Below, piece after piece: positions 4,201 to 63,180 of a stretch of 64,000 bases of DNA. The stretch comes from Yuukianura sp. NJ FZ-2021. Taxonomy: Eukaryota. Location of the stretch: NCBI GenBank assembly GCA_046563655.1, contig CM102283.1:434001-498000 (forward strand), given 5' to 3'. The translations under genes were made by a program, and so were the position numbers. Every line of letters begins with the position of its first letter. Position 1 is the stretch's first letter. Under the pieces are notes generated by a model, which saw nothing but the letters and a program-made list of their open reading frames with translations, was not told the DNA's origin and did not search any database.

Positions 4201-7200
4201 CAAAATATGAAAAGGCCAAAAAACTGAAAAGACCAAAACATGAAATGGCCAAAAAGTGAAAAGGCCAGAATATGAAAACGCCAAAAAGTGAAACAAGGTA
4301 GATGTCAGTTGTGCAAACAAGTAACTTATATAGGATAAGTTTGCAGTCGGCTTAACAAAAGTCCATGTGGTGTACTGGACAGTGCGTTATGCACAGATCA
4401 CCGCTGCTGCGGGTTCAATTCTTCACCAAAGTGAATTTTTTTTCGGATTTCCTAATTAAATATGTAAAACGATTTTCTAAAAAATAAGCCTAATTTCAAA
4501 CAAAATTTAAAAAATAAAAAAGGGACACAATAATACGGGTGACAAGCTTTCTAAAAATGCAATAAAATCAATAAAAATTTTTTTTGGTACCAATGGGGTT
4601 TGAACCAATGAACGGCAGAACATATAACAGGAGACTTATTTTTTTTTTATTAAATCCGAATTCAGTGTGAAAAGTTAATAGCGGGCCATGAAAACCATAG
4701 TTCCGCACCCTACCAAATGCGAAACAAATCGAACTATAAAACGTGTATGTCAAAATTAACGCATTTGATACAACGTAACAATTAGTTTGAAGGTATCTTA
4801 CTGCTATTGATAAAAACGACGTAGACAAAGTATTTATCTAAAAACCTAACCGTTAATGGATTAGCAAAAACATAGAAACAGCAAATGTCAAACAATAACT
4901 AAAGAACGATAACTAAAATCTTAATTTTAACTACACTAAGTGTCCAATTTAACTATAAAATCCGATATTCTGAGCAATTCCGAGCAGATAATCCGAGACC
5001 GGTAGTTCGTCATACTTTTCGACAATACTGATGAGTCGAATCTCCAAATCCCGGTACTTCTTTCGTTGCGGCTGAGCAGGAGCACCAGCATTAAGTTGGT
5101 TCAGAACCATTTCAGTATGGCTTTGCTCTTCCTTAAGCTTATCGACGAAGCGCCAAATTGTCGGGTGAGACATACCGAGAAGGGTATTGAATCGCCGATT
5201 CCAGCCTTCGACCGAGTTGTTCGTTCTGGCATTGGTGACGACGGTTGCTTGAAAACAATTCCACAATGAATGTGCAAACATTGGTGGGCGCCATCTTCCT
5301 CGACGTCGACAGCCAATCCAAGTTGATTCAAAGTAGTCGAGCAACGGACGAAGTAGCTCCTCATTATCTTCATAAAATGGAGTGTTCAAAATGACGTCAA
5401 AGGACTGTCGGACGGCTTCAACCGGAACGAAGGCCAGCGCTGGTATTTGTCGGAGATAGAGGGCGAACTCAGCATCCGTGTTGTACTTATTCAAAATGTC
5501 TGGAAACTGCTGGACGTGTTTCCAGATACACTGCGAAAAGTGGAAAAAACATCCACGTTTTTCGGCGTTTGGAAAGACGGTATCAAAAGCATTGAGGCTC
5601 CCGGTTTCAAAGTCGGTCATGATCGAAGTTGGGTTGAAGTTGACCCCGGCGGTGACGGACAGGTTGTTCATCGCAGTTAGAAACCTGGTGTAAGTGTCCT
5701 CTTGCTTGTTGGGTAAAAGGCCGTATACAAGAGGCAAGGTCTTCTTGGATTTGACGCCGTGGACAGTGAATACTTGTTTAAACAATGGTGGTGAGCTCTT
5801 AAAAGTTCCATCCGCGTACCAGTGGCTGCTATGATTGAGAGCTCTTAAATTGGCTGCAGTCGAGAACAACAAAATTCGGTCGTTGCCTGGTCCGGAATCG
5901 AACAACAAAAACTCATCCCCGGTCAGCGTTTTGGTAAATCGTAAGGGCAGGATCAGTTCGGTTAGGTCCCTCGGGTTGGCAGGTGCTGAAGTTTCAACGC
6001 GACGAGTACGATTAATTGTGTTTGAAAGCTGCGATGATGAGGGAAATACCCCTGCGACAGCTTTAGACATCCCGGTGGTTGCGACGGCGATGATTTGAGA
6101 TGGAATCGTAGGCGTAGTTCTGGCCGTTTCTTTAATTGTGCTGATTAATCTCATTTTTTCCAAGGTCGCAGCATCAACAGGGTGATCATGACCTCCAGTC
6201 TCGGATTTGACCTCGTCGTTGGTGGTAACGCACTTTCCTGGACAGCCTTGTCGGTATTCCGTGCATCGCCAATAGACTGAGTCCTTGTAGTTTCCGGTTT
6301 TATAAAAAGTGTGTCCATTTTGCAGTAACAACTGCTTCCCTTTTTGTGATTCCAAGAATTCGAGTGGCATTGTTACTAAAAATTATAATTTAACCTTCAA
6401 TTAAACTTTAAACACTAAAAAAATATAAATATGTATGTTATATACATTACACTTACGCTGAATTCGATGCAATTGGTCTAGATGACCTTAGGATGTGTCC
6501 GAAAACGATTAAACCAAACGGAAACCAGTTGTAGTGTACCAGATGTAGACGTTTTCAAATTTACACTAAAGTTGTTTATTTATGTACTGATTTTCCTTCA
6601 AAAAGTTTTTTTTTCCTTTTTTTTTTGAAAGTGAAGCATTAGCGGTTGTTTTTTTTTTTTGAAATTTTTGTCTTTTCCTGAAAGCACAGAATTCCAGCGA
6701 GAATGATAAGACATTTGAAATTTTTGTAAAAAAAAATCCCTCATTTGAAATTTCAACTGCTAACTTTCGGGGTTTTGGCATTCTGGTCTTTTCACTTTTT
6801 GGCGTTTTCATATTCTGGCCTTTTCACTTTTTGGCCATTTCATGTTTTGGTCTTTTCAGTTTTTTGGCCTTTTCATATTTTGGCCTTTTCACTTTTTGGC
6901 GTTTTCACTTTTTGGCCATTTCACTTTTTGGCCATTTTCTTTTTGGCGTTTTTAGATTTTGGCCTTTTCACTTTTTGGCCATTTCATTTCTGGCCATTTC
7001 ACTTTTTGGTCATTTCACTTCTGGCCTTTTCACCTCTGACCTTTTCACTTTTGGCCAAATTATTTTGGCCAATTCACCTGCTACGGGAGTGGGGAGGAGT
7101 GGGGAGTGAGGAGGAGTGGGGAGTGAGGAGTGAGGAGGAGTGGGGAGTGAGGAGGAGTGGGGAGTGAGGAGGAGTGGTGAAATGTTACAAAATCAAACTT

Positions 7201-10110: not shown

Positions 10111-11407
10111 TAGACCTTTTTTTTCAAAATTAAAATTTTGAAGGAGAGGAAACTGTTTAAAGTGTTCAGCGTTCCGACAATCTCTGACTGACGGGGAAAA
10201 TTTAAAAAGACGAAAATGGCAGGAGGGGTACTAATAATATTTTAAGATTCCAAGTAGATTGCTAGTTAAACTTCAATTAATCTTCTTTTAGTTAAACTCT
10301 AACTTTTTGTTAACTTAGTTCAATTTGTTAAACTAACCTTTAACTTTAAAAATTAAAAGTATAGTAGTGTAGAGGTCAAATCGTTAGTTCAAAATTCTTT
10401 CAAAAGTCATCAATTCAGAAAAGGTGTAAAACAAAATCACTCCTCCAGAGTATCCATACTTTGTTGTTTTTTTTTTCAGATGTCATAAAAATTTGAAATA
10501 AGCTAAGCTGCAGTAAAAAGTAGAAAAAATGAAATTTTTAGACTTGCATAGTACCAAAAATGTTAGCTGTTAGATTTTGTGTTAAGGAATGAAAACAGTT
10601 TTTGTCCAAATGTTCGCCAAATTGTGTGATACCTGTTTTGTAGCAATAAGTCATAGGTCACCACCTACAATTGTTTGTGCTTCAACTTAATTAATCAACT
10701 ACATTTTAGAGTGTAAATAGCTACGTTGACGTGCTTTTGATACAACTTAAGTCTAAGAGCAATTAGAGAATTGGGGATGAGCATTGTACTATGTTTAGAC
10801 TGTAAAAATAAATGTTAATTCGGAGGTCACGACCTCTCATGTTGCTTTATTGTTGTTTGAATAGCGTACACCTAGGTACTTTTTCGAACAAAAACGTACT
10901 TTTCCGTTCGGATTAGATAAATAAAATGGCTGTCAACGGCTATTGGCTGAACCATTTCAAGTGTGTCTGAGGCGCCACGGAGCGAACCCTGTCATTTCCA
11001 CACAAAAACGGGACGAACTAAGAATTGACGACTATAATTGTAACCCACCGGCCCTCTGCTGTGGGCTACATTAGGTGGCTACACCTGTGGCAACTTGTGC
11101 AGCCATTTTAGCCTAACATAACTTAAAGCGGCAAGATTTGTTGCTGCAGACTATTCACACTCATTGTAGCCGCAAAGTTGCTACATTGTGAATACAATTG
11201 GCCCGTATACCTTATCTCAACCTGAAAAATGGCAAAGTTTTTCAAATCACTTCTCTCGTGTATCTTTTCTCTTTTCTTTCATTCAAGTCTTCACCAGCTT
11301 TTCATTTCTTCAGGAATTTGAATCTAAAGACCGGTGTAACCGGAGTGTTGTTATAAGTTATTGCTCATCTGTTCTACTAAGTAATCGTTAATTGCAGTAG
11401 AAGTATA

Positions 11408-13289
11408 ATGGCTCAGTACGATTTGACAAACAAACTTGGTCAAAATTTTGACCGTCACTTGGTGGCTCCACTTCTTGAGTTTCTTGCAGCACAAAATGTA
11501 AGGAAACAATGGATTAATAAAATGGAACATGTCATTGTGCCATCGCTTGCTAACTATTTCACAACGGTATTTGTTTTGTTTAGATTTACAAACCAGAGGA
11601 TGTGCTCCAAACGAAGTTGGAGGTTCTGGGGAAACGAAGATGATGGATTATGTCATCGATGTCTTCAAGAAGGTCCATCCGGACGAACAAGTTCCAGCCG
11701 TAAGTTGTTGCCATTTCCCATGCCAGTTGCCAGTACGATGTTGCTTTAAGTAATTGGGATTTTTTAAATAGAAATTCATGGAGAAACGAACCAAGGTCGT
11801 TGAGGAATACAAGGCGGTTCAGGAAAAGTCGAGACCCATCACTGAAATTCTGGAGAGCAGTGAATTACCCGAGCAGATTTCCAATTCCCGCGACTACCGT
11901 CAATTGGTCGACTACTTGGTCAAAAACCATGATGTAAGATTTACTTAATTGGATATTAACCTGGAAATGGTTTAAGCTACTTATTCTTTACGCGTAAACC
12001 CGTTTTTTTTAAACAGTTCCAACCGGACCAAATTGACTCAATCTACGACTATGCCAAGTTGTACTACGAGTGTGGAGACTACGCCACTGCCTCCCAGTAT
12101 TTGAACTTGCACAACGAGTTGGTTCCAACTACTGACAAGGTCAGTTCGAGTTCTTATGTTGATCTCATAATCTGATTCATTGGAGTTGCTTTGTTTTGTC
12201 ATTTATTTAGAACTACTTGAGCGGACTTTGGGGAAAATTGGCATGCAATATCTTGTTGCACCAATGGGACTATGGAGTGGAAGATTTTGAGAAACTGAAG
12301 ACGTTCATCGACGAGGACGTCTTTCGGAGTTCTCTCCACGTAAGGCCACTTACTAACCAAACTGGGTTAGGACTAAATGACACTTGCTAATTTTTCATAT
12401 CTGAACGTTGATGTTGCAGTCGTTGCAACAACGTATGTGGCTTTTGCACTGGGGTCTCTACCTCTACTTCAACCACTCCAAGGGCTGGGATCTGCTGCTC
12501 GATCTCTTGGCCAACAACCCCAAGTATTTGAACGTCATTCAGACGACTTGTCCCCACCTCCTGCGCTACTGGGCCACGGCTGTCATCATCTCCAAACACA
12601 CTCGCCATTCCAGCGCCATGAAGGACTTGGTCAACGTCATTCGCCAGGTTCCCTTCCACTTCAAATTCTAAATTCACTATTCAATCATTCATAGCTTAAC
12701 ATGACTTCAATTCCTAGGAATCTTACAACTACCGAGATCCAATTACTGAATTTGTGGAGTGCCTGCATGTCAACTTTGACTTTGACGGAGCTCAGAAGAA
12801 GCTGAAGGATTGTGAGCAAGTGCTCTACAACGATTTCTTCCTCGTCAACTGCTACCCATTCTTCATGGAAAATGCAAGACTCATGATTTTCGAAACATTC
12901 TGTCGCATCCATCAATGCATCAGCATTGGGTAAGCATTTTTTACATCCTCTCGACCTAGATTATAAATTTGTACAGTACGTTCCACTTGCCAGATGACTA
13001 ACATGGTTTTGTTCATTTCAGAATGTTGGCTGACAAGTTGGACATGAATGAAGACGAGGCAGAACGATGGATTGTGAATTTGATTCGAAATGCTCGGCTG
13101 GACGCCAAACTGGATTCAAAGTTGGGTCATGTCGTGATGGGTGTTCATGCAGTGTCACCCTATCAACAAATCATTGAGAAGACAGAGTTTTTGAGCATGC
13201 GCAGTCAAGTGCTGGCAAACAGTGTTGGACGGAAGCTGGGAGGAGACAAAAGTTATCAAGTTCTTTACCGGGATCGGGACACAACGTAA
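11408..13289 (+). CDS. eIF3e: Eukaryotic translation initiation factor 3 subunit E (Int-6); apparent 1-nt frameshift in exon 2
   Basis: MAQYDLT...[37 protein letters not shown] and [28 protein letters not shown]. Approximate exons 11408-11497, 11584-11699, 11772-11933, 12017-12139, 12211-12339, 12420-12647, 12718-12929, 13022-13289. The extreme C-terminus is uncertain. Confidence 0.95.
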
Positions 13290-28214: not shown

Positions 28215-30268
28215 TTAAAACTCCCACTGCGTCGCTTCCGCGGGATCCGAGCCACCCAGACCCACTTGTCCGTTCTTCAGTGCGTTGAGATAGCGCCCAC
28301 CCTCCGTCCGAATTGCGAGTCGATTGGGCTCTCGGAGCTCAAACAGAAACTTGTTAGCCGCTGCAGCATCGCCTTCGGCAACCACCTCTTCTCCTTCCCC
28401 ACGAAGCACGCAGTACATTCCGCCCACTGCAAATAAAATACATTAATTCCCATCCCACTTGTACATGCAGAATTATATCTAAGTTGACTCACTTTTAAAA
28501 GTGACTCTGCCTTTCTCGCCTCTCACCACCAAGATAGTTTCGTAAGAAGCTTTGTTACACTCCAGACGCGGATACGACGGAGATTTGAAGCCAAGATATC
28601 CCTGTTCACACCGCAGGACGAGACGAGGCCTAATAAGAAAAACACACAATAAGAATCCACTGAAAAGCATTGGTGCATAACATTTTTATAGCATGACGAA
28701 ACATGAATTTGGTATTTGGCTGAGATGGGACCTGTTAACCAGATGGAAGAAGAATTTGGCATTCTCGTCTCCTTGGTCACAATTGGCGTACAGATGACCT
28801 GACCTCTTCACTCCCAGAAACTTTCCATTCTGGGCTCGGAATCCCAGTGACCCATCTTCACTCCACTTCAAATCGAAAAGACCAGAGGAATTCCTGCAAA
28901 AACGTAAACAGCGTTACAGATTTCGGAAACAAATAAGTAACGGTGGAAGAAAACATTTATGCTTTTACTTGGTCTGCGACGAAGCTTGAATGCCACCCTG
29001 GGTTTCGAGTGTCCAGTACTTGTCCTTCATTGTACGCAAGTACCATTGCCGAACAGAGGGCTCAAATTCCAATTGAAACACTTCGTCGTCAGATATCTCC
29101 TCTTGGTTCGCAGTGAGGTCAACACCTTAAAGACAAAAACAACTTCATCAGTTACTTACCTAAACTAGACGCAGCAGATAAACAAATGAAAAGTGCACTT
29201 ACCTTGCTTAACTGAGAGGAATCTTGAATTGAGAGCTGCGACGAATCCCGCTTGTGGAAACGAATCCTGCAGATAGAACAGCTCATCCTTTGTGATTGTA
29301 CTGGACCGCGTTTTGAGCACAGCTTTAGATCCAATGGGTGCCAAGTAAAGTCCAGCACTGTCGCGTAAAGCCAATTGTCCACGATGGAACTCAACCCAGA
29401 AGAAGCATGCGGTGTCAACTGCTTCCTAAACCGTAACAACAAAATTAGTTTACCATAGAAAATTCCAATCGGATTTTGATATCCGTGCAATTTATCAACT
29501 GCATAAACTGTTGGAACTTTTACCACAAGCGTCCCATCCTTGGTGAGAAATTTGTTGTTTGGAGTTTGGAGTGCATATCGTCCTTGTCTGAACTGAAGAG
29601 TAAACAGGGTGTCGGAACCCCACGCCACGTTAGAATCCACAATCACTTCATCCCCATCCTCCGATAGACGAGCGAATCGTTTGCGTCCGACGCTTCTCAA
29701 GTTCACTTGTGGTCGAGCGCAGAGATGAACGGACCAGATTTCGGTTGAAGTAGGAGTCTTGGCAGTGCAAGTCAACTTGTCCGAGCATGAGCCCAAGTAG
29801 TAACCACGGGAAACGTTCTTGAGTGCCCATCCACCTGTCAAAACAAGTCCAATTAAAAATAAGATTTAGAGTAGTTTTACAGGATTAAGAAGAGGTCAAC
29901 TTACCTTGGATGAGTTGAATTTCGAAGAAGGAGCCGGCGTCTCTCTCCTCTCCTTCGCAAGTGACGTTGCCAAAAGAGTCCACTGCCAAGTACCTACCCA
30001 AGTGTGACTTGAGCGTTACAGCCTCACCGTGTTCTGCCCCCTCCAACAGCCATGTCTGCTTCTTGCGCAGGGACACTCCGTTGGCATTGGCCTTGAACCC
30101 GAAAGTTTCAGCGGTCATGTAGTTGGAAGCGGAGTTGAGAAGCCCCACGGCCCAAACGCCGCTTTCCCACCCCATCCCACCGACTGACGACGCACCATTG
30201 TTCCCGTTCTCTGCGCAACACGAACCGTTGACCTTCCCCTTGCTCTTTCCATTTAGTAGCTCAGTCAT
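28215..30268 (-). CDS. sn: Fascin (singed) actin-bundling protein
   Basis: [60 protein letters not shown]-terminal ATQWEF. About 7 coding exons; start codon approximate. Confidence 0.95.
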
Positions 30269-32459
30269 AACTTGGTTGTTATTCGATCTCACTTGATCCA
30301 AGGTTCACTCCCCTCCTCCTGCGAAACACGATCAGCAGGAACTGAAATGACAGAAATTAAATCAAAGTCCTCTTCTTGTTCCAATTTCAAGTTGCCGTAA
30401 TGTCAACCATAACAAATGTACTCATCGGAGGATAATTTTTAACGATCATGCCATCAGGTTACTCTCATACCCTCGAAACGTCTCAATCTTCTATGTAATG
30501 CTGTTCTTATCAACGCAACGGGAGTCAAAACGTGTTATGTTCAGGAAAACACAAGTTCCCGAGAGAACGCCGTTAGAAACAAGTAAACGGATTAGTAAAC
30601 TTACTTTTAATACATATGATAAGTAGGTTTATGTTTATAAGCTTATAATCAATTCCTATTGAACGTTAACTGACTCAGTGAACGAAACCCTTAAGAAACT
30701 ACTTTCTGAAGTTCGGACAATCTCTGTTATTAGAAAAAGAAACGTTCGGAACCGGGTCAACAAATGCTACCAGTGTTCAGGAAGTTCAGATTTCAATATA
30801 GGTACTATCAAATTTTTTCGCAATAATACACATAACAAATAATTAATAAGTCGAGTTTTGGTGGGTACAGTGCCACCATTAGCCACTTACGTCAACCGGG
30901 GTAAGATGAGTCCACTTCTCACCCTTCCGTGCTTTTTGTTGCACTTGCAGTTGCACTTGAGTGCTTTATTTCCCGTTGTTTATGAGGATGAGTCGCTTTC
31001 TGTCAATGCTCTCCAAGTTCCACCACTTCCACCGACTGTTTACGACGTTTTTCCCAGAACTACGGAAATCAATATCCGCCTTCAACAGCAGATCTCGGAC
31101 TTCTGTTCTTTCCTTGTTCCTTGAACTCCCTTATCTCAATCCGACACCCCACGAACCTATCCGATTCCCGAAATCCAGGGAACCAAATGCTGCGAAAATT
31201 CCGATGACGGATGCCGCAACCAGCCGACACAGTACTTCACTAGTCTCCAGAATCTTAAGGAATGCTGTGGTGCCGCTAACTTTTAAGTTAGCTTCCTGTC
31301 CTAAGGTGGTCGACGTTCCTACCGGTGGGAGGTTTGATGATGGACTGACGAGAGCGACGGATCTTCCAAAGTCACTTGAAGGAACTAACATGAAATCTGT
31401 GGGGATCTTGATCTGGTTGGGATTGGGAATCAAGAGAATATAATGGGAAGCAATTGTGAATCATTATTCGAGCCTCCATAAGCATGTGGGTCTCCGAGAT
31501 CTCATCTTGAGATGAGTTCCCATGCAGTGAGGATGGAACGGGATAAGAAGACACTTGAAGGGCACAGAGTCATTTGCCAGGAAAGATACAGAGATTGTGG
31601 TTGATGAATTGGGATGAGAGGAGGCAGAGGTCAGATCATCATGCTTCGTCAACTGTAACACAATCCAAACTGAGCCATTAAAAATACTACATCTTCCTGC
31701 CACCTTGCCCTCCCCTCAACCCGTCAGCTGTGTACAGTCTTCCACAAATCATAATCACCAAATCAGCTGAGTCGCTGAGTGATGAAGAGACTCGGATTGG
31801 AACGGGATTCGTTTAGCCTGTCCTGCCACTCTCCTGCCTTGTCCATTCCCCGACAACCTGTTGACCTGTGGGTTGTTTCCATAGTGAAGCTCAACTGAAG
31901 TCACCACACAACACACAAGCACAACAGTAAGTACCTCGTCGAAAAAGTATTTACGGTGAATAATTTAAGAAATTGAAAATTTATTCTGAATAGTTGACAA
32001 ATCTAGGAATTTGAATGCTTGTGTTGCTGGGTGGGTGGAAGAGCGGGGTCAAAGGTTATCGTATTATGTAGCAAGAGGTATTCCTCTTTATTTCAAACCC
32101 AGACACACTACCATCTCCACAATCTTTTTCCCCTGCCCTATTTCTAACCAACTTCTGACTATTCAGTTTCTCTACTCATAAATGTATCCATTGCTACAAC
32201 AAAAGATACCCGAATACTAAAATAGAATACCTTTGTTCCGTCTTTGTAATTCGGTTATACGTTTTGGAATTGCAGGAAGTCGGAGAGGACCTTTGGGTTC
32301 GTGAATCGTGAATCACGAGTGGCAGAATTAATTTGGAACTCGTGGAATCCTGTTCCCATCCTGCCTTCAACCATCAACTCGATTTCGTTTAGCAACACGC
32401 CAAAACACTACCGACAAAAGTTGACCGTGACAAAAGTTTGCTCGGGACGGAACTAGAGA

Positions 32460-34061
32460 ATGGTGCTGTTGCTGGATGGTTTGGAGGTGGATGACCCTCC
32501 CGTCGACTGCCGCTCTCTCTTTGACCTTTGTCCATCCCTCAAGGAAAAAGGAGTGGAGTTTGCATCCAGGTCACCCAAAATGGTCGGACCCATGGGACTG
32601 CTTTATGTCGCTCAAAGGGAGTTTGCTATCGTCTCACCACAAGACAGTACGTTCATCCTGTTCCTTATGACAACTACCACTTTACAAAATTCCACTTTGT
32701 CACTACTGGGTTCTTATTATTTTCTAGAGCATGTTAGCATACTTGGAACCGACAGTTGTACAACGTGCCTAGCAGTGGTTCTCCGGCATCCGGGTAAGAC
32801 ACTTGAATGATTTAGATCTAGATGGGACAATCAGCCCAGCAGAGACACTGTTTGTGTGAACAACCGAAGATGTAAAACGCTTGTCTCAAATTTTGTTTTA
32901 CGTAGGTACTGGCGTGTTCGCCCTAGGCCATTTGGACTCCGTCTCCGTCGAAGGGGTTTGTTCCATGATTCAGAGGTTGGGAAAAGTTAACTATCAAATG
33001 TTATATAATAATATAGGATTTACCTACTCTTCCGCATATGAATGACCAATTAATTTGTTCCGACTTGTCCATTTTTCCAGATTACAGGATACCAGTTCCA
33101 CGTACTACGAGGACGTCGTCCTCCAAATGCATTTGGTGGGTTCGTTCAATGACTTTCAAGGCTACAGCCATGAGCTTGTCTTTGCCTTTCTCCGTGAGTA
33201 CTACTAGAGTACGACCTAATAATAAACTAACCTCTAACGTGGCCAACTAACAAAATTAGTGCCTGGTTATTAGGTTACGTTAAGGTTTAGAATATGATTG
33301 ATCAATTGTGCTTCTACACAGATTGCATCCAGAAACTCAGCACAAAAATTAATCTCGTTTCTGCGTGTATCGGTGATGTAAATACAACAGTTCGTGCCTC
33401 CATACCTTGGCCTATTGTGCACGGCCTCGGTAAGAATGAAAAACCTAACCAACGATATTTCGTACTTTTCAGTTTAAAGAAACGAGTTTGATGTCTTAAT
33501 TTTTGGATTTAAGGTGTCAATCTAAGGACTGGAGACATTTTCCCAGCGACATTTCCAGATAGGGGTCCCGACATTCCGTTGCGTGGTGCTCGACTGTTTA
33601 CTGGATCACACGCTGTAAACTTTACACTCAAAACAAATACGGACTTTACACTTTACCTATCTGACATGACTTTTTGTTTCAGTTGCTTGAAGTTTACGAC
33701 TACGGACTCGGTTTGCTTCGTATTGGTCCATTCCACTACGAGCCTATGCGATGCGCACCAATTCTGCTCCAGCAGTCAGATGAATTTATCCTTCAGCACC
33801 TCTCTTCCTCGCCTCAAGTGGAACCACCGCATGTGGTAGATTGTGTAAGTTTTTACGCTGATTCCACTGACATTCCTCCAATTGCATAAATACTTCCTAC
33901 TTCCATACGCTGATGTGTGACTTCTCTTTTTACTTTAGATCAAGAGCACTCTGAGGCACATCCAGGAGCACCCATTTCCAGAAATAACTGTTTTCCAAGA
34001 CAACGGTCCACGGTGGTACCGCAAAGATGAGAGTGGCCAATGGATCTTTACTCGGTTATAA
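32460..34061 (+). CDS. NTAN1: Protein N-terminal asparagine amidohydrolase
   Basis: LLYVAQREFA, ILGTDSCTTCLAVVLRH, GDIFPATFPDRGPD, ILQHLSSSPQVEPPH. Eight exons join in frame. Confidence 0.92.
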
Positions 34062-34446: not shown

Positions 34447-37400
34447 TTAAAACCATTCTTTGAAACAAGCAATGTAAATAACCTTCATGATTTGTGTTGC
34501 TACACAGTAGGCCACGAGTTCCAGGAGAATGAATGGATACATGTCCAGCGGAAGATGGATAAATTCAAGCGTATCCGAAATGTACGGGATCCATGGGAGT
34601 GCCATTGCAATTGCAATTATCAGAGTCGTCATGACAGTGACCTGAACGGAAGCAAATGACTGGACAAAAGGAATCTTCGGTGTCCGCAGAAGATGGACAA
34701 TAAAAGTCTGTGTCAAAATCCCAATGGCAAACCACGTTGTCCTGAACAGTCCCAAATTGTCATCTGGTCCACCAGTAATTCCGTACAGAAAGTACATGTA
34801 CGCGAAGTACGTTATGTCAAAGATGGACGAAAGAGGGCCAAAGAATACCATAAACTTCAGGACGGATTTCATTGACCAGCGGTGTGGAACTTTCAAAAAT
34901 TCAGGATCCATTTTATCCCATGGTATTGCAGTCTAAAAATGACAATTTGAATTAATATATTATAATACATAAATTAATTAAACTTGGTCTATACATTTCA
35001 GTGATATCCGAATCTGATACCTGACTGATGTCGTAAAGCATGTTTTGAGTCAGCAATTGTAGTGGAAGAATTGGCGTAAATGGAAACCAAGCTGAAGCGA
35101 CGAGCAGTGAGAAAGCATTTCCAAAGTTTGAAGAAATGGCCATCACGATGTACCTAAAAATTAAACATGTTTTATAAAATTTCATAATTTTGAGAATTTT
35201 TTTTTTTGAAAATTTACTTGAGCGTATTGCCATAAGTTTGTCTCCCATAAATTACTCCGTCAGCTACAACCGTCAAGCTTTTCTCCAACAAAATAATGTC
35301 AGCCGAATCCCTAGCAATTTCCGTTCCATTGTCAACTGACAATCCAATGTCAGCCTCCTTAAGAGCATTCGCATCATTGATTCCATCACCCAGAAATCCA
35401 ACAACATGTCCATTCACTTTCAGAGCTCGAACGAGCTTTGCTTTTTGCAATGGCGTCAGTTTGGCAAAAATTGTTCCAGTTTCAGCCAGTGTGCAGATTT
35501 GTTCATCAGTAGCTCCGTCCAGGTCTCTTGACGTCACTACTCCTGTCACAGGTAGCTTCACATCTTCACAAATTTTGCGACAAATCAGTTCTGAATCGCC
35601 TGACAAAACTTTGATTTGAATGTTGTGTTGCAGAAGAGTCTTTATTGCTGGAAGGGTAGATTGTTTCGGTGGATCTTGAAAAGCAATGAAGCCAGCAAAC
35701 ACCATTTGGGACTCACTCATGACATGAAGTGACGGCGGAGCTTCTGGAAATGTTTTATAGGCTACAGCAATTACACGCAGACCATTTTGATTCAATTTAT
35801 TGTTCAAAGACTTGAGATGTGTTTGAACATCCGGAGTCATTTCGACTGCTCGAGCACGACTGATTGGAAGCAACTCTTCAGCAGATAGGATCCCTTGATT
35901 TTGCGTACTGCCACTGCTCCCATCAAATTCTTCACCAATACAAACATGACTACATTTCGAAAGCATTTCATCCACGGCTCCTTTCGTTACTAACAAATTT
36001 TGTGTTCTGTCGTTTTTAGCTTGGATCAAAACGGACATGCGTCGACGCACAAAGTCAAACGGAAGTTCATCCAATTTTTGAAATTTAGTGGCCATTCTTG
36101 GAACGCGTCGGCTAGGATGAAAGCGGTCAGAGAATTTTTTACGAAAATAATCCACTATAGCCATGTCCATTAAATTGGCCAATCCCGTTTGAAAGTGTGA
36201 ATTGAGAAAAGCAAGTTGCATTGGAAATGTGGCCGGATTGCCGTAAGCATCCAAATGCTGAATCAGTGCTACTCGATTTTGTGTTAATGTTCCTGTTTTG
36301 TCTACAGCCAAAACATTCATCCCGCCAAGATTGATAATGGCGTCTAAATTTTTGACAATACATTTCTTTTTGGCCAATAGAAATGCTCCGCGTGACAGCG
36401 TCGCACTTACAATCATCGGCAGCATTTCTGGAGTAAGTCCAACAGCAGCAGCTAAAGCAAACAGAGCCGCTTCGTACCAACCATCTCCTGGATGAATGTA
36501 GCCCTGAAGCAGAAATATTGGCGGAACTAAACAAATCATCGTGAGGAAGAAAATCCAAGAAATTCTGCGCACGCCCAATTGAAACGCATTTGTTGACCTC
36601 TGCTTCCCCAATTCTTGAGCCATACTTCCAAAGTACGTTTGGTTTCCAATTGCACGAACAATTCCAGTCCCAGTTCCAGATACGACTGAAGTTCCCATGT
36701 AACATAGACTCGGATTATCCGTTTCCGCTTGAATCGTAGTATTGATGTCTTTCAATTTTTCTACTCTCAAACCAAACAAGTTTCTGAAAAAGATTGTCAC
36801 TGACTCAAGGCATGAGTTGCCAGAATTGGTTGAATGGCGAACATGGACGGTGTCAGTTTCTTGTGGAATTGGAAGGACAATGTCGCCATCACGTCGCTCG
36901 GCTGTTGGATCCACTTGTTTCACCACTTCAGTCGCTTCTCCCGTTAGTGACGATTGAGATATAAACAAATCTTTGGCTTCCAGTAAAAATAGGTCGGCAG
37001 GAATCAAATCTCCAGCAGCCAACTTGACCTACGAAACGAAAGGAGTTAATAAGTAAACAAAATTTTCTATACAGTAATAACAATATTATTGATATTTGTT
37101 TAGTGTTCAATAATTAATTATTGGCTTCGAAAGTTCAAGTGCACGTTGGAGTGGGAGAGAAGAGGAGGAGGTATACATATCATGGAGGGAATTTCATGAC
37201 AATCTGCTTATTAACGTCCTCCAAACCCATTAAATTTAAATTAGTTCTTCTCGCATAGAATTTATTTGTATTAATTATGGAAAATTCTAAACTAACGCTT
37301 TTTTTTCATCTTTGAACGATATAGGAATAGTGTGCAGCACCTATAAGAATGGTTTGGTAAAGTCGACGATCAGTGTGATAAGGCCCACTGATTCTAAACA

Positions 37401-39594
37401 GAGAAATTCAATCGATTTTTAAATGTCCTATATAATATCTATTGCCTTTGGAGTTGTTAAAGTCGCTTGTACATTGGTCTCCTAAGTAATAAATTTAATT
37501 CTTTAACATTATTTTAATTTTCATAGTTTTTTGCTCATGCGTACTTTGTCTCAACGGTAGAATCACATAATGATAAAATAATAAGTAATTCCATAATGAA
37601 CTGGTTAGTAATGAGCTGTAACCAGTTTTTAGCAATGTTCGAAAGTTAACCTTTGACTAAGATTGGTACAGTTAAAAACCAATCCCACTTGTATTTTCCC
37701 TAATAGTACACCATACCTAAATAGTACACCAGGTCCCTAATAGTACACCAGGTCCAGGGCCCGAAAAATTAATTAGTACACCGTCCCAAATAGTACACCA
37801 GGTCTCTAATAGTACACCGGGTCTTTGGTCTTTGGTAATACACCCAAGGAGTATGCCCAGTGTTGCTGTATGCTTAAACATCCAGTGGCTTAATCCATCC
37901 GGATATCCAATAGAAGAAATGGGGTTGTAGTGGACGGTGAATGCAACAAATTAAAAATTCAGCGGAGTTCAAATAAATTTAAGTTAACTATTATAAAATA
38001 ATTTATTTGCATTTTAAACCGTCTCTTGATATGCGCACCCATTGACGAAATATCGAAAAAGTGGATTTCCAGCAACTCTGAGTATACGCCTACTGGAAAA
38101 GTTTGGCTATATTTAATTAAATTACAGTGTTGGTGGATGGATAAAATACTTCTTCCACTTCCCTCAAAAGTGCTGGATATATCCGGATTTTCTTGGTTTC
38201 TTACGGACGAAACTCAATTTCGTCCATCTGAAACTGGATTTCAACCGGATTTATCCATTTATCCAGTGGATATATCTTGGACGAAATGCTCAAAAAGTGG
38301 ATATCCACCAACACACAGATTAAATACAACAGAAAAAACATTAATGTTCTTTCTATCTTGTTCCTACACAAGCAATTCTACAAAATACACATCATTTACA
38401 GGCTTCTTTAAAATTTTTACAAGCAAAATTCGAATATTTCTTGCGTAATTTCAATGAGAGGTAAAAAATAATAAGCTTTTTGGAAAAAAGAATTAATACA
38501 CCGTCCCTAATAGTACACCAGGTCTCTAATAGTACACCACCCCCAGAAGTCGAAAACAAAATTAGTACACCAGGTGTATTATTTGGGAAAATACGGTATT
38601 TCTCATTTCTTTCCGGTTTCAAAAAAGCGTAGATTGTCAAGAAGTCGACCTTCTGACGGATTTTTCCCTCCATGATTTTGCTCCCCGCCAATTCTCCACC
38701 CAAAGCGTCTCCCTTCTTAACCATACCAATTGCCATACAATTTTAAACCAAAATAATTGAGGGCTTAATTATAATCTAATTAACACAAAAAATTAATAGT
38801 GAAAAAGTGATCAATCGTACCCAGTCTCCAGGAACAATATTTTCAGCCAAAATTTTTTCAGTGTAAACATCTCCGTCTGTGACAGTAGATTCATTTGTGA
38901 TGAGAGATGCTCTGCTAGAAGTTGTATCACTCGACTCATCTTCATCATCTCTGTATCTAAAAACTGTCACAGTATTTGATACAAATTGCTTTAGATTTTG
39001 AGCAGCTCTCGCTGATTTCCATTCTTGGACGAATCGAATCAAAATGGAAACGAGGACCATGACCATCATGATTGTTGTTGCATTTAAGTCATCCATTGCT
39101 GCACTACTTGCAGCCAGTATTCCCAGAAGTACATTAAACGGATGGAAAATTGCAGAGAACAAGATGGAGTACCATGTCACATTTCCGGTTGTTACGATCG
39201 TATTTTTTCCATACAGTTTTTGTCTTTCCTTGGCTTCAGATTTCGACAAAGGACGCTGACGCGTCTGCGCAGGAGCAGTGAATTGAGCCACTTGGGAAAA
39301 ATCAAATCCACCGTCAAAAACTTGTGGTGGGGCCGGTGCCACCGGTGGGACAATAGTTACCAACGACGGTGCTTCAAAAACAAAAAAAAATTGAAAATAG
39401 TTTTTTTTTAAAGAAAAAAATTCAGAAAAGAATTTCCTGAAAAAAAAATTCTTTTCATTCAAAACACTCCATTCAAAAGTTCTTTTCATCCAAAAATTCC
39501 TTCCATTCAAAAAGTTTTATGTGATAAAATTCGAATTCTTTGAATAGCATTTCTGTCTCTTACCTGCTTCTTCTTCTTCCACGATACGGTCCAT
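34447..39594 (-). CDS. mgtA: Mg2+-translocating P-type ATPase, MgtA/MgtB (P3B) type
   Basis: Exons 39594-39564, 39371-38821, 37028-35218, 35153-35021 and 34932-34447. Motifs AVGLTPEMLPMIV, DKTGTLTQN, ELPFDFVRRRMSV, VGFLGDGINDA, SSNFGNAFS, YDISQ, FGPLSSIFD and HLLRTPKIPFVQS are characteristic of the MgtA family. Confidence 0.9.
37691..38598. mobile_element. Non-autonomous TIR element (pogo/Tc1-like) in the ATPase intron
   Basis: gtattttccctaatagtacacc at the left end and ggtgtattatttgggaaaatacggta at the right end. Subterminal aatagtacaccagg repeats at both ends. Confidence 0.65.
38125..38314. mobile_element. hAT-like MITE nested in the preceding element
   Basis: Ends cagtgttggtgga...tccaccaacac; a second copy lies inverted at 62988-63180. 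Confidence 0.75.
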
Positions 39595-54983: not shown

Positions 54984-56722
54984 TTTTTCTCAACTTAAAA
55001 TTTCAAAGCGTTCCTTCATATGTATTCCACTCACAATACTTTATACAATTCATAATCTTGTGTAATGTATGGTATGAGCTTGAAAATAAAAACCAGCATC
55101 ATTAAAGCTAAATAAAAACAATAGTCTAACTTTGGATTTATTTAAAACTAGTTTTTAAGCGGATCGGTGACGCGGCATGTATTTCTGAATAAAATTATGT
55201 TGGCTTTTTGTGGACCGGCTGTGGTTTGCATCTCATTTTTTTATGATTCCACGAGTTTATTTTATTGCACTTTCTAGAAAAAATTGGCAGAGGATTTTAA
55301 AACATTTTGCGACCAGCCACTCCCATTGGTTGGACTGGGCCATTTTTGAACGACATGTCGACCAATCAGAAGCGAGCTGCACGCCCATTGGCTGAAAATT
55401 GGTATAGGGTTTGGAATTTTGACCAATCAAATTGCAGCAATGTACTGGCCACGCCCACTGATGCAACGACTCGTCGACCAATCAGAAGCGAGATGGACGC
55501 CAATTGGCTGAAATTGGTATACAGGTTGGGATTTTACCAAGCAAATTTCAGCATTTTACTGGCAAAGCCCTCTGGGGCAGCAACAAGTCGACCAATCAAA
55601 AGCGAGCTGGACGCCAATTGGCTAAAATTGAAACACGGGCTGGGATTTTGACCAATCAAATTTCAGTATTGTACTAGCCACGCCCTTCGGGGCAACAACA
55701 CGTCGACCAATCAGAAGTCAGGTTGACGCACTTTGTCGTCAGACTCGAGGGATTTGAACGTCCTTGGGCAGTTGACTTGCGATAAAGCTATTTCCCTGCC
55801 CATTCGAAACGACTAGTATGTGTAGTTTTGAAGGACTAGCGGACCAATAGTAACCGAGGTTGACGTCTAGCGGCAGAAATTAGTCGGTGAGATTTGTGAT
55901 TTTGAAAAATACCAAAATGAGCACTGGGTGTCGTATAAACTTGCGTACCAACACTCCACGGATCATAAGCAACTAGATGGAAACGCTTACTAGTCAAATT
56001 GCGGCATTGAAATGGTTACGCAATGCTTTTGCGGTGAGTGAAACGTTATTCACTCGGCGAAAAGCTAGACTGCAGAACTCCCACCAATGCCCTTGTGTTT
56101 GCAAATTAGGTTTGTATTGCAAATAAGTTTGTTTTTTGTACACGAGTCAATCAATTCACAAGGTCAAAAGTTTTCATTGCTTGAACTTGTCGTAAGTTTT
56201 TTTCGTGCATTCTAATTAGCGATCGCGACACGGAAGTAATTGGCAATTAAAAAACCGCAAACGTGCAAGACGAACAGTAGGTTACGTCTTGTGTCATCTC
56301 AAAATATTTTCGAAATATATTTAGAAAGGAACCTGATGTTTACAAAGAAATATTTTTGAGAATTTATTATTTAAAAGGGTTTCCGAGAAAAATAGTTTCC
56401 GTGAAAGTAGTATTTTCAAACACAAAAAAAAAATTAAAAACCAAATTAAATGCCAAGTTTAAAATGAGCCCAAGCTATAAAAAAAAACTAAAAAGTTGCA
56501 TAAAAGTGCAAAGAAGAGAGGATTTTTCAGGTGGGACTCAAACCACAAAACCGCAAAATATTTTTTAAATTATTTTTAAAAACTAATTAAACTCTTAAAC
56601 CTACAGTGAGCATGGACAAAAACGAAATATAAAAAGTTGCACAAAAGTGCAAAAAGAAAAGCATTTTGTGCAAAAGAAAAGGGGGTAGGGGGGGGGGGCT
56701 TTGCCCACCCAAACCATTGACT

Positions 56723-57391
56723 CTCGTAGTACAACTTGGCATAGTCGTAGATTGAGTCAATTTGGTCCGGTTGGAACTGTTTCAAAAAAAAAAACGGGTT
56801 TACGCGTAAAGAATAAGTAGCTTAAACCATTTCCAGGTTAATATTCAATTAAGTAAATTTTACATCATGGTTTTTGACCAAGTAGTCGACCAATTGACGG
56901 TAGTCGCGGGAATTGGAAATCTGCTCGGGTAATTCACTGCTCTCCAGAATTTCAGTGATGGGTCTCGACTTTTCCTGAACCGCCTTGTATTCCTCAACGA
57001 CCTTGGTTCGTTTCTCCATGAATTTCTATTTAAAAAAATCCCAATTACTTAAAGCAACATCGTACTGGCAACTGGCATGGGAAATGGCAACAACTTACGG
57101 CTGGAACTTGTTCGTCCGGATGGACCTTCTTGAAGACATCGATGACATAATCCATCATCTTCGTTTCCCCCAGAACCTCCAACTTCGTTTGGAGCACATC
57201 CTCTGGTTTGTAAATCTAAACAAAACAAATACCGTTGTGAAATAGTTAGCAAGCGATGGCACAATGACATGTTCCATTTTATTAATCCATTGTTTCCTTA
57301 CATTTTGTGCTGCAAGAAACTCAAGAAGTGGAGCCACCAAGTGACGGTCAAAATTTTGACCAAGTTTGTTTGTCAAATCGTACTGAGCCAT
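56723..57391 (-). pseudogene. eIF3e: Truncated eIF3e copy (exons 1-3 and part of exon 4)
   Basis: Runs from MAQYDLTNK... to YAKLYYE, then unrelated sequence. Confidence 0.85.
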
Positions 57392-58559
57392 TATACTTCT
57401 ACTGCAATTAACGATTACTTAGTAGAACAGATGAGCAATAACGTATACCACTCCGGTTCCGGTAACAACACTCCGGTTACACCGGTCTTTAGATTCAAAT
57501 TCCTGAAGAAATGAAAAGCTGCTGGTGAAGACTTGAATGAAAGAAAAGAGAAAAGATACACGAGAGAAGTGATTTGAAAAACCTTGCCATTTTTCAGGTT
57601 GAGATAAGGTATACGGGCCAATTGTATTCACAATGTAGTAACTTTGCGGCTACAATGAGTGTGAATAGTCTACAGCAACAAATCTTGCCGCTTTAAGTTA
57701 TGTTAGGCTAAAATGGCTGCACAAGTTGCCACAGGTGTAGCCACCTAATGTAGCCCACAGCAGAGGGCCGGTGGGTTACAATTATAGTCGTCAATTCTTA
57801 GTTCGTCCCGTTTTTGTGTGGAAATGACAGGGTTCGCTCCGTGGCGCCTCAGACACACTTGAAATGGTTCAGCCAATAGCCGTTGACAGCCATTTTATTT
57901 ATCTAATCCGAACGGAAAAGTACGTTTTTTGTTCGAAAAAGTACCTAGGTGTACGCTATTCAAACAACAATAAAGCAACATGAGAGGTCGTGACCTCCAA
58001 ATTAACATTTATTTTTACAGTCTAAACATAGTACAATGCTCATCACCAATACTCTAATTGCTCTTAGACTTAAGTTGTATCAAAAGCACGTCAACGTAGC
58101 TATTTACACTCTAAAATGTAGTTGATTAATTAAGTTGAAGCACAAACAATTGTAGGTGGTGACCTATGACTTATTGCTACAAAACAGGTATCACACAATT
58201 TGGCGAACATTTGGACAAAAACTGTTTTCATTCCTTAACACAAAATCTAACAGCTAACATTTTTGGTACTATGCAAGTCTAAAAATTTCATTTTTTTCTT
58301 CTTTTTACTGCAGCGGAGCTGTTTCAAATTTTTATGACATCTGAAAAAAAAACAACAAAGTATGGATACTCTGGAGGAGTGATTTTGTTTTACACCTTTT
58401 CTGAATTGATGACTTTTGAAAGAATTTTGAACTAACGATTTGACCTCTACACTACTATACTTTTAATTTTTAAAGTTAAAGGTTAGTTTAACACATTGAA
58501 CTAAGTTAACAAAAAGTTAGAGTTTAACTAAAAGAAGATTAATTGAAGTTTAACTAGCA
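56723..58559 (-). repeat. Inverted near-identical duplicate of 10260-12070 (eIF3e upstream region and 5' exons)
   Basis: Continuous reverse-complement match with scattered SNPs and small indels. Confidence 0.97.
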
Positions 58560-62987: not shown

Positions 62988-63180
62988 TAGTGTTGGTGGG
63001 AATCCACTTTTTTAGCGTTTCGTCCAGGATATATCCACTGAATAAATGGATAAATCCGCCGGATGAAACCCAAACCCAGTTTCCGATGGACGAAATTGAC
63101 TTTCGTCCGGAAGAAACCTGGATATATCCACCACTTTCGAGGGTTAGTTGAAGAAATATTTTATCCATCCACCAACACTG
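62988..63180. mobile_element. hAT-like MITE, second copy
   Basis: tagtgttggtgg...ccaccaacactg; imperfect flanking repeat cccctaac / ccccttaac. Confidence 0.75.

Follow-up and report, generated by a model that had tools for sequence, protein, structure and literature searches.

The window analysed here is a 64,000-nucleotide stretch of DNA from Yuukianura sp. NJ FZ-2021. On its minus strand, between positions 34447 and 39594, lies what is predicted to be an intact nuclear springtail gene for a P3B-type (MgtA-like) P-type ATPase of 1003 amino acids. Five exons join into one open frame of 3012 nt (1003 codons plus a stop, with 0 internal stops) and are separated by four introns of 192, 1792, 64 and 88 nt, which are GT-AG throughout, have pyrimidine-rich acceptors and show a G+C content of 0.13-0.34, as against 0.43 in the coding sequence. 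A first-pass annotation of this DNA had described five in-frame exons carrying MgtA motifs and had set the ends of the gene at 39594 and 34447; the frame is indeed open, the P3B model is the best match, and the two ends are the ATG and the final base of the TAA.

Gene structure and host neighbours

The proposed exon 1 (39564-39594) holds the ATG (39594-39592), 10 further codons and 1 nt, with a GT donor at 39563. Both this exon and intron 1 (39372-39563; 192 nt, phase 1, GTAAGA...TTGAAG, G+C 0.23) are placed by splice consensus only; translation could instead begin at an in-frame ATG near 39489, which lies in the reading frame of exon 2. A homologous gene on an independent metagenome contig (L001) also has no in-frame ATG ahead of its conserved part, so that an upstream exon is needed there too. 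Exon 2 (38821-39371; TIGR01524 88.6 bits, PF00690) covers the protein's N-terminal tail, the helices TM1 and TM2 and the first part of the A domain, and aligns to residues 60-169 of MgtA chain 8uy7_A. It is followed by intron 2 (37029-38820; 1792 nt, phase 0, TGG/GTACGA...TCGTAG/GTC), which has the same position and phase as an intron of L001. Exon 3 (35218-37028; TIGR01524 570.7 bits) carries the A domain with TGEA and an insertion, TM3-TM4 with PEM, and the P and N domains with DKTGT, SGDS and GDGIND. The L001 counterpart of intron 3 (35154-35217; 64 nt, phase 2, CAA/GTAAAT...TTTTAG/G, G+C 0.125) lies 20 nt further upstream and is in phase 0. Exon 4 (35021-35153; TIGR01524 63.6 bits) encodes TM5-TM6 with the ion-path residues SSNFGN and QN..YD and aligns to residues 698-741 of 8uy7_A. 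Intron 4 (34933-35020; 88 nt, phase 0, CAG/GTATCA...TTTTAG/ACT) is absent from L001, where one HSP runs across the site. Exon 5 (34447-34932; TIGR01524 162.8 bits, PF00689) encodes TM7-TM10, including GPLSSIFD (with residue 881 corresponding to D780), aligns to residues 743-892 of 8uy7_A and ends in the stop TAA at 34449-34447.

Intron 2 contains transposon-like repeats. An element of about 900 nt (37691-38594) has 22-nt inverted ends (pair I1, 91% complementary) and subterminal 17-nt direct repeats (family D2, 7 copies); nested in it is an element of about 210 nt (38116-38325) with 23-nt imperfect inverted ends that are 78% complementary. These elements look like MITEs. A second, inverted copy of the smaller one lies 25 kb away at 62990-63180, matching with 82% identity over 200 nt (38125-38314 vs 63180-62990, E 3e-52).

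The flanking genes are of animal kind, with the two neighbours named in the first-pass annotation recovered as domain matches. An exon of NTAN1 (protein N-terminal asparagine amidohydrolase; 32457-32810, plus strand, PF14736, E 2e-11) lies 1.6 kb from the 3' end of the pump gene. A multi-exon, animal-type kynurenine aminotransferase (KAT) gene (41086-43377, plus strand, PF00155 at 42738-43121) lies 1.5 kb from the 5' end and is divergent from the pump gene. Among solved structures this KAT matches insect KAT best (104 bits), with mammalian KAT3 at 93 bits, far above yeast BNA3 (30 bits), and on that ground a co-transfer of KAT from a fungus is rejected. The fascin (singed) gene (28218-30208, minus strand; tblastn HSPs, PF06268) served for host placement: in a tree of 46 sequences the window groups with Orchesella, Allacma and Folsomia (SH-aLRT 100 for this clade). 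This placement, a quick tree of one fascin fragment of 278 aa, points to a springtail as the host.

Could the pump gene instead be fungal contamination, or the product of a chimeric assembly join, and be no part of the animal genome? The assembly is imperfect, in that a scaffold gap at 51168-51267 adjoins an odd partial rDNA unit. That gap is, however, the window's sole run of N and lies 11.6 kb from the 5' end of the pump gene, with no N between the pump gene and NTAN1, KAT or fascin, and the intron-2 repeat recurs at 62990-63180. Among 1.84 billion representatives the closest match is a single relative (P0001) at 69% and the next stands at 50%, so the pump gene is not from a known fungus. 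L001 independently carries a 68%-identical pump gene adjoining the same animal-type KAT gene, and the Bradysia homologue is part of a 3.3-Mb contig, that of Orchesella dallaii of one of 1.9 Mb. We therefore consider contamination extremely improbable and keep to the earlier view of a gene in an arthropod chromosome with GT-AG spliceosomal introns. A search of 34-41 kb with Rfam at the gathering threshold gave no match, and thus no bacterial Mg2+-sensing leader was detected there.

Family assignment and conserved residues

To our knowledge, animals are not expected to own MgtA-type magnesium pumps, and the assignment to this family draws on several comparisons. TIGR01524 (NCBIfam, P3B Mg) is the top family for all four large exons, with a P3A model as runner-up on exon 3 at 249.1 bits. 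The per-exon scores (570.7 + 88.6 + 162.8 + 63.6) give a rough sum of 885.7 bits, to be read against a curated cut-off of 610.75 bits that is defined for a whole protein; full-length members of the same clade score 995-1056 bits (Orchesella 998.6, Bradysia 994.8). The best structural matches of all large exons are solved MgtA structures, with 464.6 bits for exon 3, where the next pump type reaches 179.5. A comparison with the ESM Atlas returned generic P-type ATPase clusters only. The protein is thus assigned to the P3B ATPases and not to the animal P2 pumps, as first proposed.

The universal P-type catalytic motifs DKTGT, TGE and GDGxND are present, with TGEA at residue 223, DKTGT at 437, SGDS at 670 and GDGIND (GDGINDA) at 741. 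Two of these had been put down as deviations. TGEA turns out to be the commoner form, found in 48 of 67 sampled family sequences, 8 of 10 named bacteria among them, and is no deviation. The hinge, which reads SGDS and not TGD, does set this protein apart: the SGD form occurs in the window alone (1/67), though the T-to-S change is conservative. Of the residues with assigned roles in E. coli MgtA (bioRxiv 10.1101/2024.02.28.582502, the part of that preprint drawn on here), those kept are D373, E215, E331, D738, D780, N709, S776, S705, N706, Q733, N734, Q741, W806, Q814, G773, F445, F447, N102 and S131. The equivalents of the Mg2+ site are D881 (D780), N810 (N709) and S877 (S776), with T916 in place of S813, as in most sequences; the second adenine-stacking Phe (F447) is kept within a PFDF motif. 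Changes along the ion path relative to E. coli are S813 to T, H729 to Q, T702 to A, N99 to H and T106 to G.

The MgtA and MgtB pumps of E. coli and Salmonella (8uy7, 9byb, 9ejn) belong to the same family and share with the predicted protein the layout of ten helices and A, P and N domains, the motifs DKTGT, TGE, PEM, GDGIND and PFDF, and the D780/N709/S776 site. At about 45% identity, the springtail protein differs from them in a 58-aa insertion behind the TGE loop, an N-domain loop longer by about 25 aa, the motifs TGEA and SGDS, and its encoding by a spliced nuclear gene.

Relationship to fungal pumps

We placed the protein in an IQ-TREE phylogeny of 53 sequences and 943 columns (LG+C20+F+G4 PMSF; supports given as pairs), with taxa drawn from the best-120 lists of two homologue searches, a sample that includes neither plant PH1 nor chytrids or Mucoromycotina. 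A partial sequence filed under Sphagnum (P0094, <700 aa) was the sole match of the first best-120 search left out of the trees; it is nearest to Mortierellomycota (56-60%), not to the window. A single arthropod clade (100/99) unites the window with L001, Orchesella and Bradysia, its sister group is the Mortierellomycota (100/100), and Glomeromycota and Basidiobolus complete an enclosing fungal group (99/98). An AU test rejects the arrangement in which the fungi form one clade without the arthropods (delta lnL 36.9, p-AU 0.0002), a p-value weakened by the choice of that fungal group after a FastTree had been viewed. Both stems are long, at 0.26 changes per column for arthropods and 0.39 for Mortierellomycota, and some long-branch pull is possible.

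A second line of evidence, the insertion, is independent of the tree. Relative to E. coli MgtA, the actuator domain is longer by about 58 aa, inserted behind the TGE loop. The span from TGE to CxMGT measures 78 aa in the window, 77-93 aa in 13 arthropod sequences and 130 in another (P0060), compared with 92-120 aa in Mortierellomycota (n=14), 37-41 in Glomeromycota (n=5), 24-42 in Basidiobolus (n=3) and 25-35 in 10 named bacteria. Among the sampled sequences the long insertion is common to arthropods and Mortierellomycota only (14/14 in each, 0/10 named bacteria), and the two share an insert core, x-F/L-G-I/L-R/Q. The insertion first noted as a peculiarity of this gene is real, but by these alignments it is an inheritance from the fungal lineage and no deviation of this gene. 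The uncharacterised Mortierellomycota pumps (Actinomortierella, Linnemannia, Podila) align with the window at 47-49% over near full length; they differ from it in their longer insertions and in TM8, where their WF is followed by E (WFxEG) and that of the arthropods by V or I.

These results bear on where the gene came from. The first-pass annotation had suggested a domesticated horizontal transfer of a bacterial-type pump, to be checked by BLASTP and a phylogeny. The transfer stands, with the arthropod copies nested inside the supported donor group of early-diverging fungi as sister of Mortierellomycota, whereas a bacterium as the proximate source does not. A direct passage from bacterium to arthropod, with all introns gained later, would fit a family that is mainly bacterial, and the bacterial sequences, which lie outside the fungal group, are just about 5 points less identical to the window than the fungal ones (44-45% vs 47-50%). 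Against it stand both nested supports, the AU result and an insertion with its core motif that the named bacteria lack, and this route is already disfavoured; we hold it very unlikely. Vertical descent of an ancient opisthokont gene that disappeared from nearly every animal and from the majority of fungi would dispense with transfer altogether. The family's presence in fungi and animals, and also in Plasmodiophora among other eukaryotes, speaks for such descent, but the arthropods are nested in the fungi and are not their sister, and only 3 named animal species appear among the best 120 matches (4/120 sequences in one search, 6/120 in the other). Folsomia candida and Allacma fusca are not among the best-120 pump matches, even though the database covers the proteomes of both (fascin sequences P0219 and P0144). 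We thus regard vertical descent as exceedingly improbable. The donor was most likely a soil fungus and not directly a bacterium: the gene would have been horizontally transferred to arthropods from an early-diverging fungus that belonged to the Mortierellomycota lineage or stood close to it, would then have acquired the host features of short AT-rich introns and of host transposons in one intron, and would have been retained under purifying selection. The last point is indicated by the comparison with L001 over 956 aligned codons (pN 0.20, pS 0.80, which is saturated, pN/pS 0.25).

Predicted function and spread in soil arthropods

By analogy with bacterial MgtA, ATP would phosphorylate Asp437 of DKTGT, and Glu225 of the actuator TGE loop would dephosphorylate it. 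The transported ion, a divalent cation and in all likelihood Mg2+, would pass from the extracytosolic side to the cytosol through a membrane site of Asp881, Asn810 and Ser877 (E. coli D780/N709/S776), with Glu395 and Asp839 (E331, D738) on the ion path, giving the animal an ATP-driven step of Mg2+ uptake or retrieval. Mechanism, ion, direction, membrane and tissue are all inferred here from conserved residues. We know of no primary ATP-driven Mg2+ uptake pump in any other metazoan. Taken as a whole, the explanation of a springtail P3B gene with a Mortierellomycota-related donor, kept by purifying selection and predicted to encode a Mg2+ pump, is in our judgement probable.

A protein of this same origin might nonetheless be no Mg2+ importer, and act as a partner or modulator on an endomembrane or carry another cation or H+. 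In the part of the review used here (PMC10654040), Mg2+ transport by P3B pumps is questioned: plant PH1, also a eukaryotic P3B pump thought to be horizontally acquired, does not look like a Mg2+ importer and helps to acidify the vacuole at the tonoplast together with PH5, a P3A pump, which it boosts without transport of its own. The 50-90-aa actuator insertion private to the arthropod/Mortierellomycota clade and the five path residues unlike E. coli would also suit a changed role. On the other side, we know of no animal P3A H+-ATPase with which the protein could form a complex of that kind. The Mg2+-coordinating and complementation-essential residues are all present, including D780, E331 and D373, mutation of which abolishes complementation by E. 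coli MgtA (10.1101/2024.02.28.582502, in the portion of the preprint drawn on). We consider a role other than Mg2+ import unlikely and prefer the predicted Mg2+ pump.

Now we consider the distribution of the gene. It had been anticipated that related soil arthropods might already carry annotated copies, and homologues are annotated in Orchesella cincta, O. dallaii and Bradysia odoriphaga. These share TGEA and the insertion, lie on large host contigs and are 44-50% identical to the window, with two paralogue groups in Orchesella and the window lineage branching first. Because related copies in Orchesella and Bradysia form one clade, the spread reflects a single old acquisition with many losses, passage of the gene between soil arthropods, or repeated acquisition from the same unsampled fungal lineage. 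A like host range is described for the microbial-type terpene synthases of Sciaridae, mites and springtails, a different family that is likewise foreign to animals; the part of that study used here (PMC11665903) proposes transfer within arthropods with mites as donors, whereas no mite homologue is named among the best-120 pump matches. We found no paper that describes a P3B/MgtA gene from any animal. The genome paper on O. cincta counts 253 transferred genes but uses the words 'ATPase' and 'magnesium' 0 times in its main text; its supplementary table S6 may list the Orchesella homologue. A fuller account, in which a Mortierella-like donor gene spread from arthropod to arthropod (springtails, fungus gnats), drives a predicted ATP-dependent Mg2+ uptake and has its insertion as a eukaryote-specific regulatory module, is one we offer tentatively, as possible but doubtful.

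Horizontally acquired animal genes are mostly soluble enzymes, and an intact, constrained ten-helix primary ion pump in an animal, as predicted here, would be unusual among them. The review, in the text drawn on here (PMC10654040), places P3B ATPases in no eukaryotic kingdom besides land plants; in our data the family occurs in early-diverging fungi, in Plasmodiophora and, most likely via a fungal donor, in hexapods. It would be a second family with a range of fungus gnat plus soil micro-arthropod, a range that part of the terpene synthase study reads as arthropod gene exchange (PMC11665903), and the springtail pump may offer a tractable case for what P3B pumps really transport.

Gene model, neighbours and host of the P3B pump

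The pump gene, a P3B (MgtA-type) P-type ATPase gene on the minus strand at 34447-39594, holds up as first read, in five exons and at the same coordinates. With the frames joined by script in minus-strand reading, the exons (39594-39564, 39371-38821, 37028-35218, 35153-35021 and 34932-34447) give an uninterrupted open frame of 3012 nt (1003 codons followed by TAA), and the four introns (192, 1792, 64 and 88 nt) are all GT-AG and much richer in A+T than the coding sequence (G+C 0.13-0.34 versus 0.43). TIGR01524, the P3B Mg2+ ATPase, is the top NCBIfam family for all four large exons (570.7, 88.6, 162.8 and 63.6 bits). For exon 3, the second-best family is the P3A proton pump (249.1 bits), with animal-type P2 pumps below that, and in the Protein Data Bank E. 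coli MgtA scores 464.6 bits and the best other pump 179.5 bits. Because P3B and MgtA score so far above other pumps, we find no grouping with the animal P2A/P2C pumps, the outcome that the first-pass annotation had named as contrary to its reading. Pfam returns the expected N-terminal, E1-E2, Cation_ATPase, hydrolase and C-terminal domains. Exon 1 is the weakest part of the model, predicted solely from an ATG and a consensus donor, and translation could instead start, without an intron, at an in-frame ATG near 39489. In L001, a 10.8 kb metagenome contig with a related pump gene, there is no ATG from the upstream stop to the conserved part, so an upstream exon is needed there too.

As the first reading had it, the gene lies between NTAN1 (exon at 32457-32810) and a multi-exon class-I aminotransferase (41086-43377), with fascin (28218-30208) farther out than NTAN1. 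The aminotransferase, a kynurenine aminotransferase (KAT), could in principle be a fungal gene transferred together with the pump; it scores 104 bits against the insect enzyme and 93 bits against mammalian KAT3, but a mere 30 bits against yeast BNA3, and we therefore reject co-transfer and take KAT to be an animal gene. A search with a fascin exon returns 105 proteins, all of whose species-named rows are pancrustacean arthropods, and a quick 46-fascin tree groups the window fragment (278 aa) with Orchesella, Allacma and Folsomia in one clade (SH-aLRT 100). By fascin alone, the host belongs among the springtails and is not closely related to any of these three. The sole N run in the window (51168-51267) is 11.6 kb from the 5' end of the pump gene.

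The protein encoded on L001 is 68% identical to that of the window over 956 codons, and one L001 intron matches window intron 2 exactly in site and phase. KAT adjoins the pump gene on L001 as well, tail-to-tail there versus head-to-head in the window. The insertion is therefore older than the divergence of two springtail lineages that are fairly distant from each other. The next L001 intron (5618-5738 of that contig) lies 20 nt upstream of the site of window intron 3 (35154-35217) and differs in phase, falling after GRQ in L001 and inside the K codon that follows GRQTYGNTL in the window; intron 4 is present in the window and absent from L001. These differences could reflect intron sliding or independent gains after the transfer.

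Repeats, rDNA and mobile elements of the window

Intron 2 of the pump gene holds an element of ~210 nt with inverted ends (38116-38325; a second copy, 82% identical, is at 62990-63180), nested in an element of ~900 nt with 22-nt inverted ends and subterminal repeats. On a larger scale, the whole region containing the pump gene is flanked by two inverted copies of a ~1.8 kb segment (10260-12073 and 56720-58559, 99% identical and 45 kb apart) that carries an eIF3e N-terminal exon (PF09440) and may stem from a recent inverted duplication or from misassembly. Immediately downstream of the aminotransferase gene are two long AT-rich tandem arrays (43845-45622), one with units of ~63-65 nt (43845-44830) and one with 31-nt units in at least 16 overlapping registers (44910-45622).

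Amid the protein-coding genes we also see a eukaryotic rDNA unit (47383-51178) with a complete 18S (47383-49193), a 5.8S (49521-49672) and the first ~950 positions only of the 28S (50002-51178), ending at the 100-N scaffold gap. Directly after the gap come perfect inverted repeats of 432 nt (51268-51699 and 55238-55669) around ~3.5 kb that includes three ORFs (213, 284 and 211 aa); a Pfam scan of two of the three, those of 284 and 211 aa, gave no match, and this insert beside the rDNA is possibly a transposon or virus-like. Elsewhere, a MULE transposase of 477 aa with a FLYWCH zinc finger (4949-6382, minus strand) lies between perfectly complementary arms of 291 nt (4003-4293 and 6790-7080) composed of 16-nt tandem units, and 4003-7080 resembles a young Mutator-like element that is possibly complete.

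Fungal affinity and history among arthropods

Among the species-named exon 3 matches listed, Mortierellomycota rank first (47-50% identity), ahead of Glomeromycota, Basidiobolus, Bradysia odoriphaga and Orchesella; bacteria, mostly Verrucomicrobiota, appear from 44-45% identity down. A FastTree of the window model, the L001 model (fuller than P0001, which it replaces) and 118 of the 119 other listed matches places a single arthropod clade next to Mortierellomycota. The match left out, P0094, is a partial P3B protein of 416 aa recorded under the moss Sphagnum jensenii; its nearest sequences are Mortierellomycota at 55-60%, none close, and it derives either from fungal DNA within a moss assembly or from a further eukaryotic holder of the family.

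The P-type ATPase phylogeny proposed at first reading was then built with IQ-TREE (LG+C20+F+G4 with PMSF, 943 columns; supports are ultrafast bootstrap/SH-aLRT) on 53 rows hand-chosen to cover each clade, namely 51 of the 118 matches plus the window and L001. Arthropod rows nest inside the fungi, with Mortierellomycota as sister. Support is 100/100 for the window with L001, 100/99 for the 12-row arthropod clade, 100/100 for arthropods with Mortierellomycota, and 99/98 when Glomeromycota and Basidiobolus are added. When the 21 fungal rows are constrained to a clade that excludes the arthropods, the log-likelihood falls by 36.9 units and the AU test rejects the topology (p 0.0002), for a fungal group defined only after the first tree had been seen. 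A 67-row FastTree with a second Orchesella paralogue pair and more bacteria gives the same picture, 14 of 14 arthropod rows falling in one clade (0.999).

Independently of any tree, the distance between the TGE loop and CxMGT backs the grouping of arthropods with Mortierellomycota. It is 78 aa in the window, 80 aa in L001, 77-93 aa in Orchesella (n=5 rows), 79-84 aa in the Bradysia group (n=6) and 92-120 aa in Mortierellomycota (n=14); Glomeromycota have 37-41 aa (n=5), Basidiobolus 24-42 aa (n=3) and named bacteria 25-35 aa (n=10). A hydrophobic-G-[IL]-[RQ] core of the extra segment is common to arthropods and Mortierellomycota. The best-fitting donor would be a fungus on or near the Mortierellomycota stem. 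A direct bacterial source fits poorly, in which we depart from the first reading, and so do vertical descent from an opisthokont ancestor, with arthropod rows lying within the fungal group, and contamination.

How the gene came to be distributed among arthropods is a separate question. The best 120 matches to a full-length Bradysia protein name just three animal species, in six rows (one of Bradysia odoriphaga, two of Orchesella cincta, three of O. dallaii) and nine further sequences 81-90% identical to the query; Folsomia candida and Allacma fusca are absent from these 120, though both have proteins in the database. The nine (P0013, P0010, P0026 and others) come from contigs of ~3-10 kb, and several contigs of ~3-4.5 kb carry a near full-length ORF (890-960 aa), so that in this group either the gene is intron-poor or the contigs are transcripts. 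Across all 1.84 billion cluster representatives, the window pump has one close relative (69%) and no other above 55%. In the IQ-TREE phylogeny the window lineage branches first and Orchesella joins the fungus-gnat set (100/99), which makes springtails paraphyletic relative to a dipteran family. Three histories fit: a single old acquisition followed by paralogy and numerous losses, passage of the gene between soil arthropods, or repeated uptake out of one unsampled fungal lineage. Terpene synthases with the same host range (Sciaridae, mites and springtails) are read as transferred within arthropods in a published case (PMC11665903).

Residues, constraint and what the transfer means

We aligned the pump exons to E. 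coli MgtA, taking residue roles from the first MgtA structure paper (10.1101/2024.02.28.582502). Kept are (E. coli numbering, window in brackets) the phospho-aspartate D373 (D437), E215 of the TGE loop (E225), E331 of PEM (E395), D738 (D839) and the clade-specific D780 (D881), along with N709, S776, the path residues S705, N706, Q733, N734, Q741, W806 and Q814, and G773, both adenine-stacking phenylalanines, N102 and S131. The changes are S813 to T, the commoner state in the 67-row sample, H729 to Q, likewise common, T702 to A, N99 to H and T106 to G. Two motifs had been flagged as deviations: TGEA is in fact the commoner form in our sample of the family, and SGDS occurs only in the window (1 of 67 rows) and is conservative. 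Between window and L001, pN is 0.20, pS 0.80 and pN/pS 0.25; since pS is saturated, the real ratio is lower. The data support a predicted P-type pump that is active and constrained and has a cation site of MgtA type. By analogy, it may import Mg2+ into the cytosol of some epithelium, a role tempered by the open doubts about P3B function in a review (PMC10654040), where plant PH1, also P3B, is the partner of a proton pump.

The same review claims that P3B ATPases are absent from all eukaryotic kingdoms except land plants, which the predicted P3B proteins matched in fungi, Plasmodiophora and hexapods contradict. Our literature search found no description of a P3B/MgtA gene in an animal. For Orchesella cincta, the genome paper counts 253 genes as transferred (30.4% fungal), with no ATPase mentioned in the main text; the supplementary list may include the homologue. 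Annotation in related soil arthropods, as had been anticipated, does exist for Orchesella, whose proteins are labelled 'Magnesium-transporting ATPase, P-type 1' in public records. What is solid is that a primary ion pump has moved from a fungus into a hexapod and become well integrated there, and it has possibly spread later from arthropod to arthropod.
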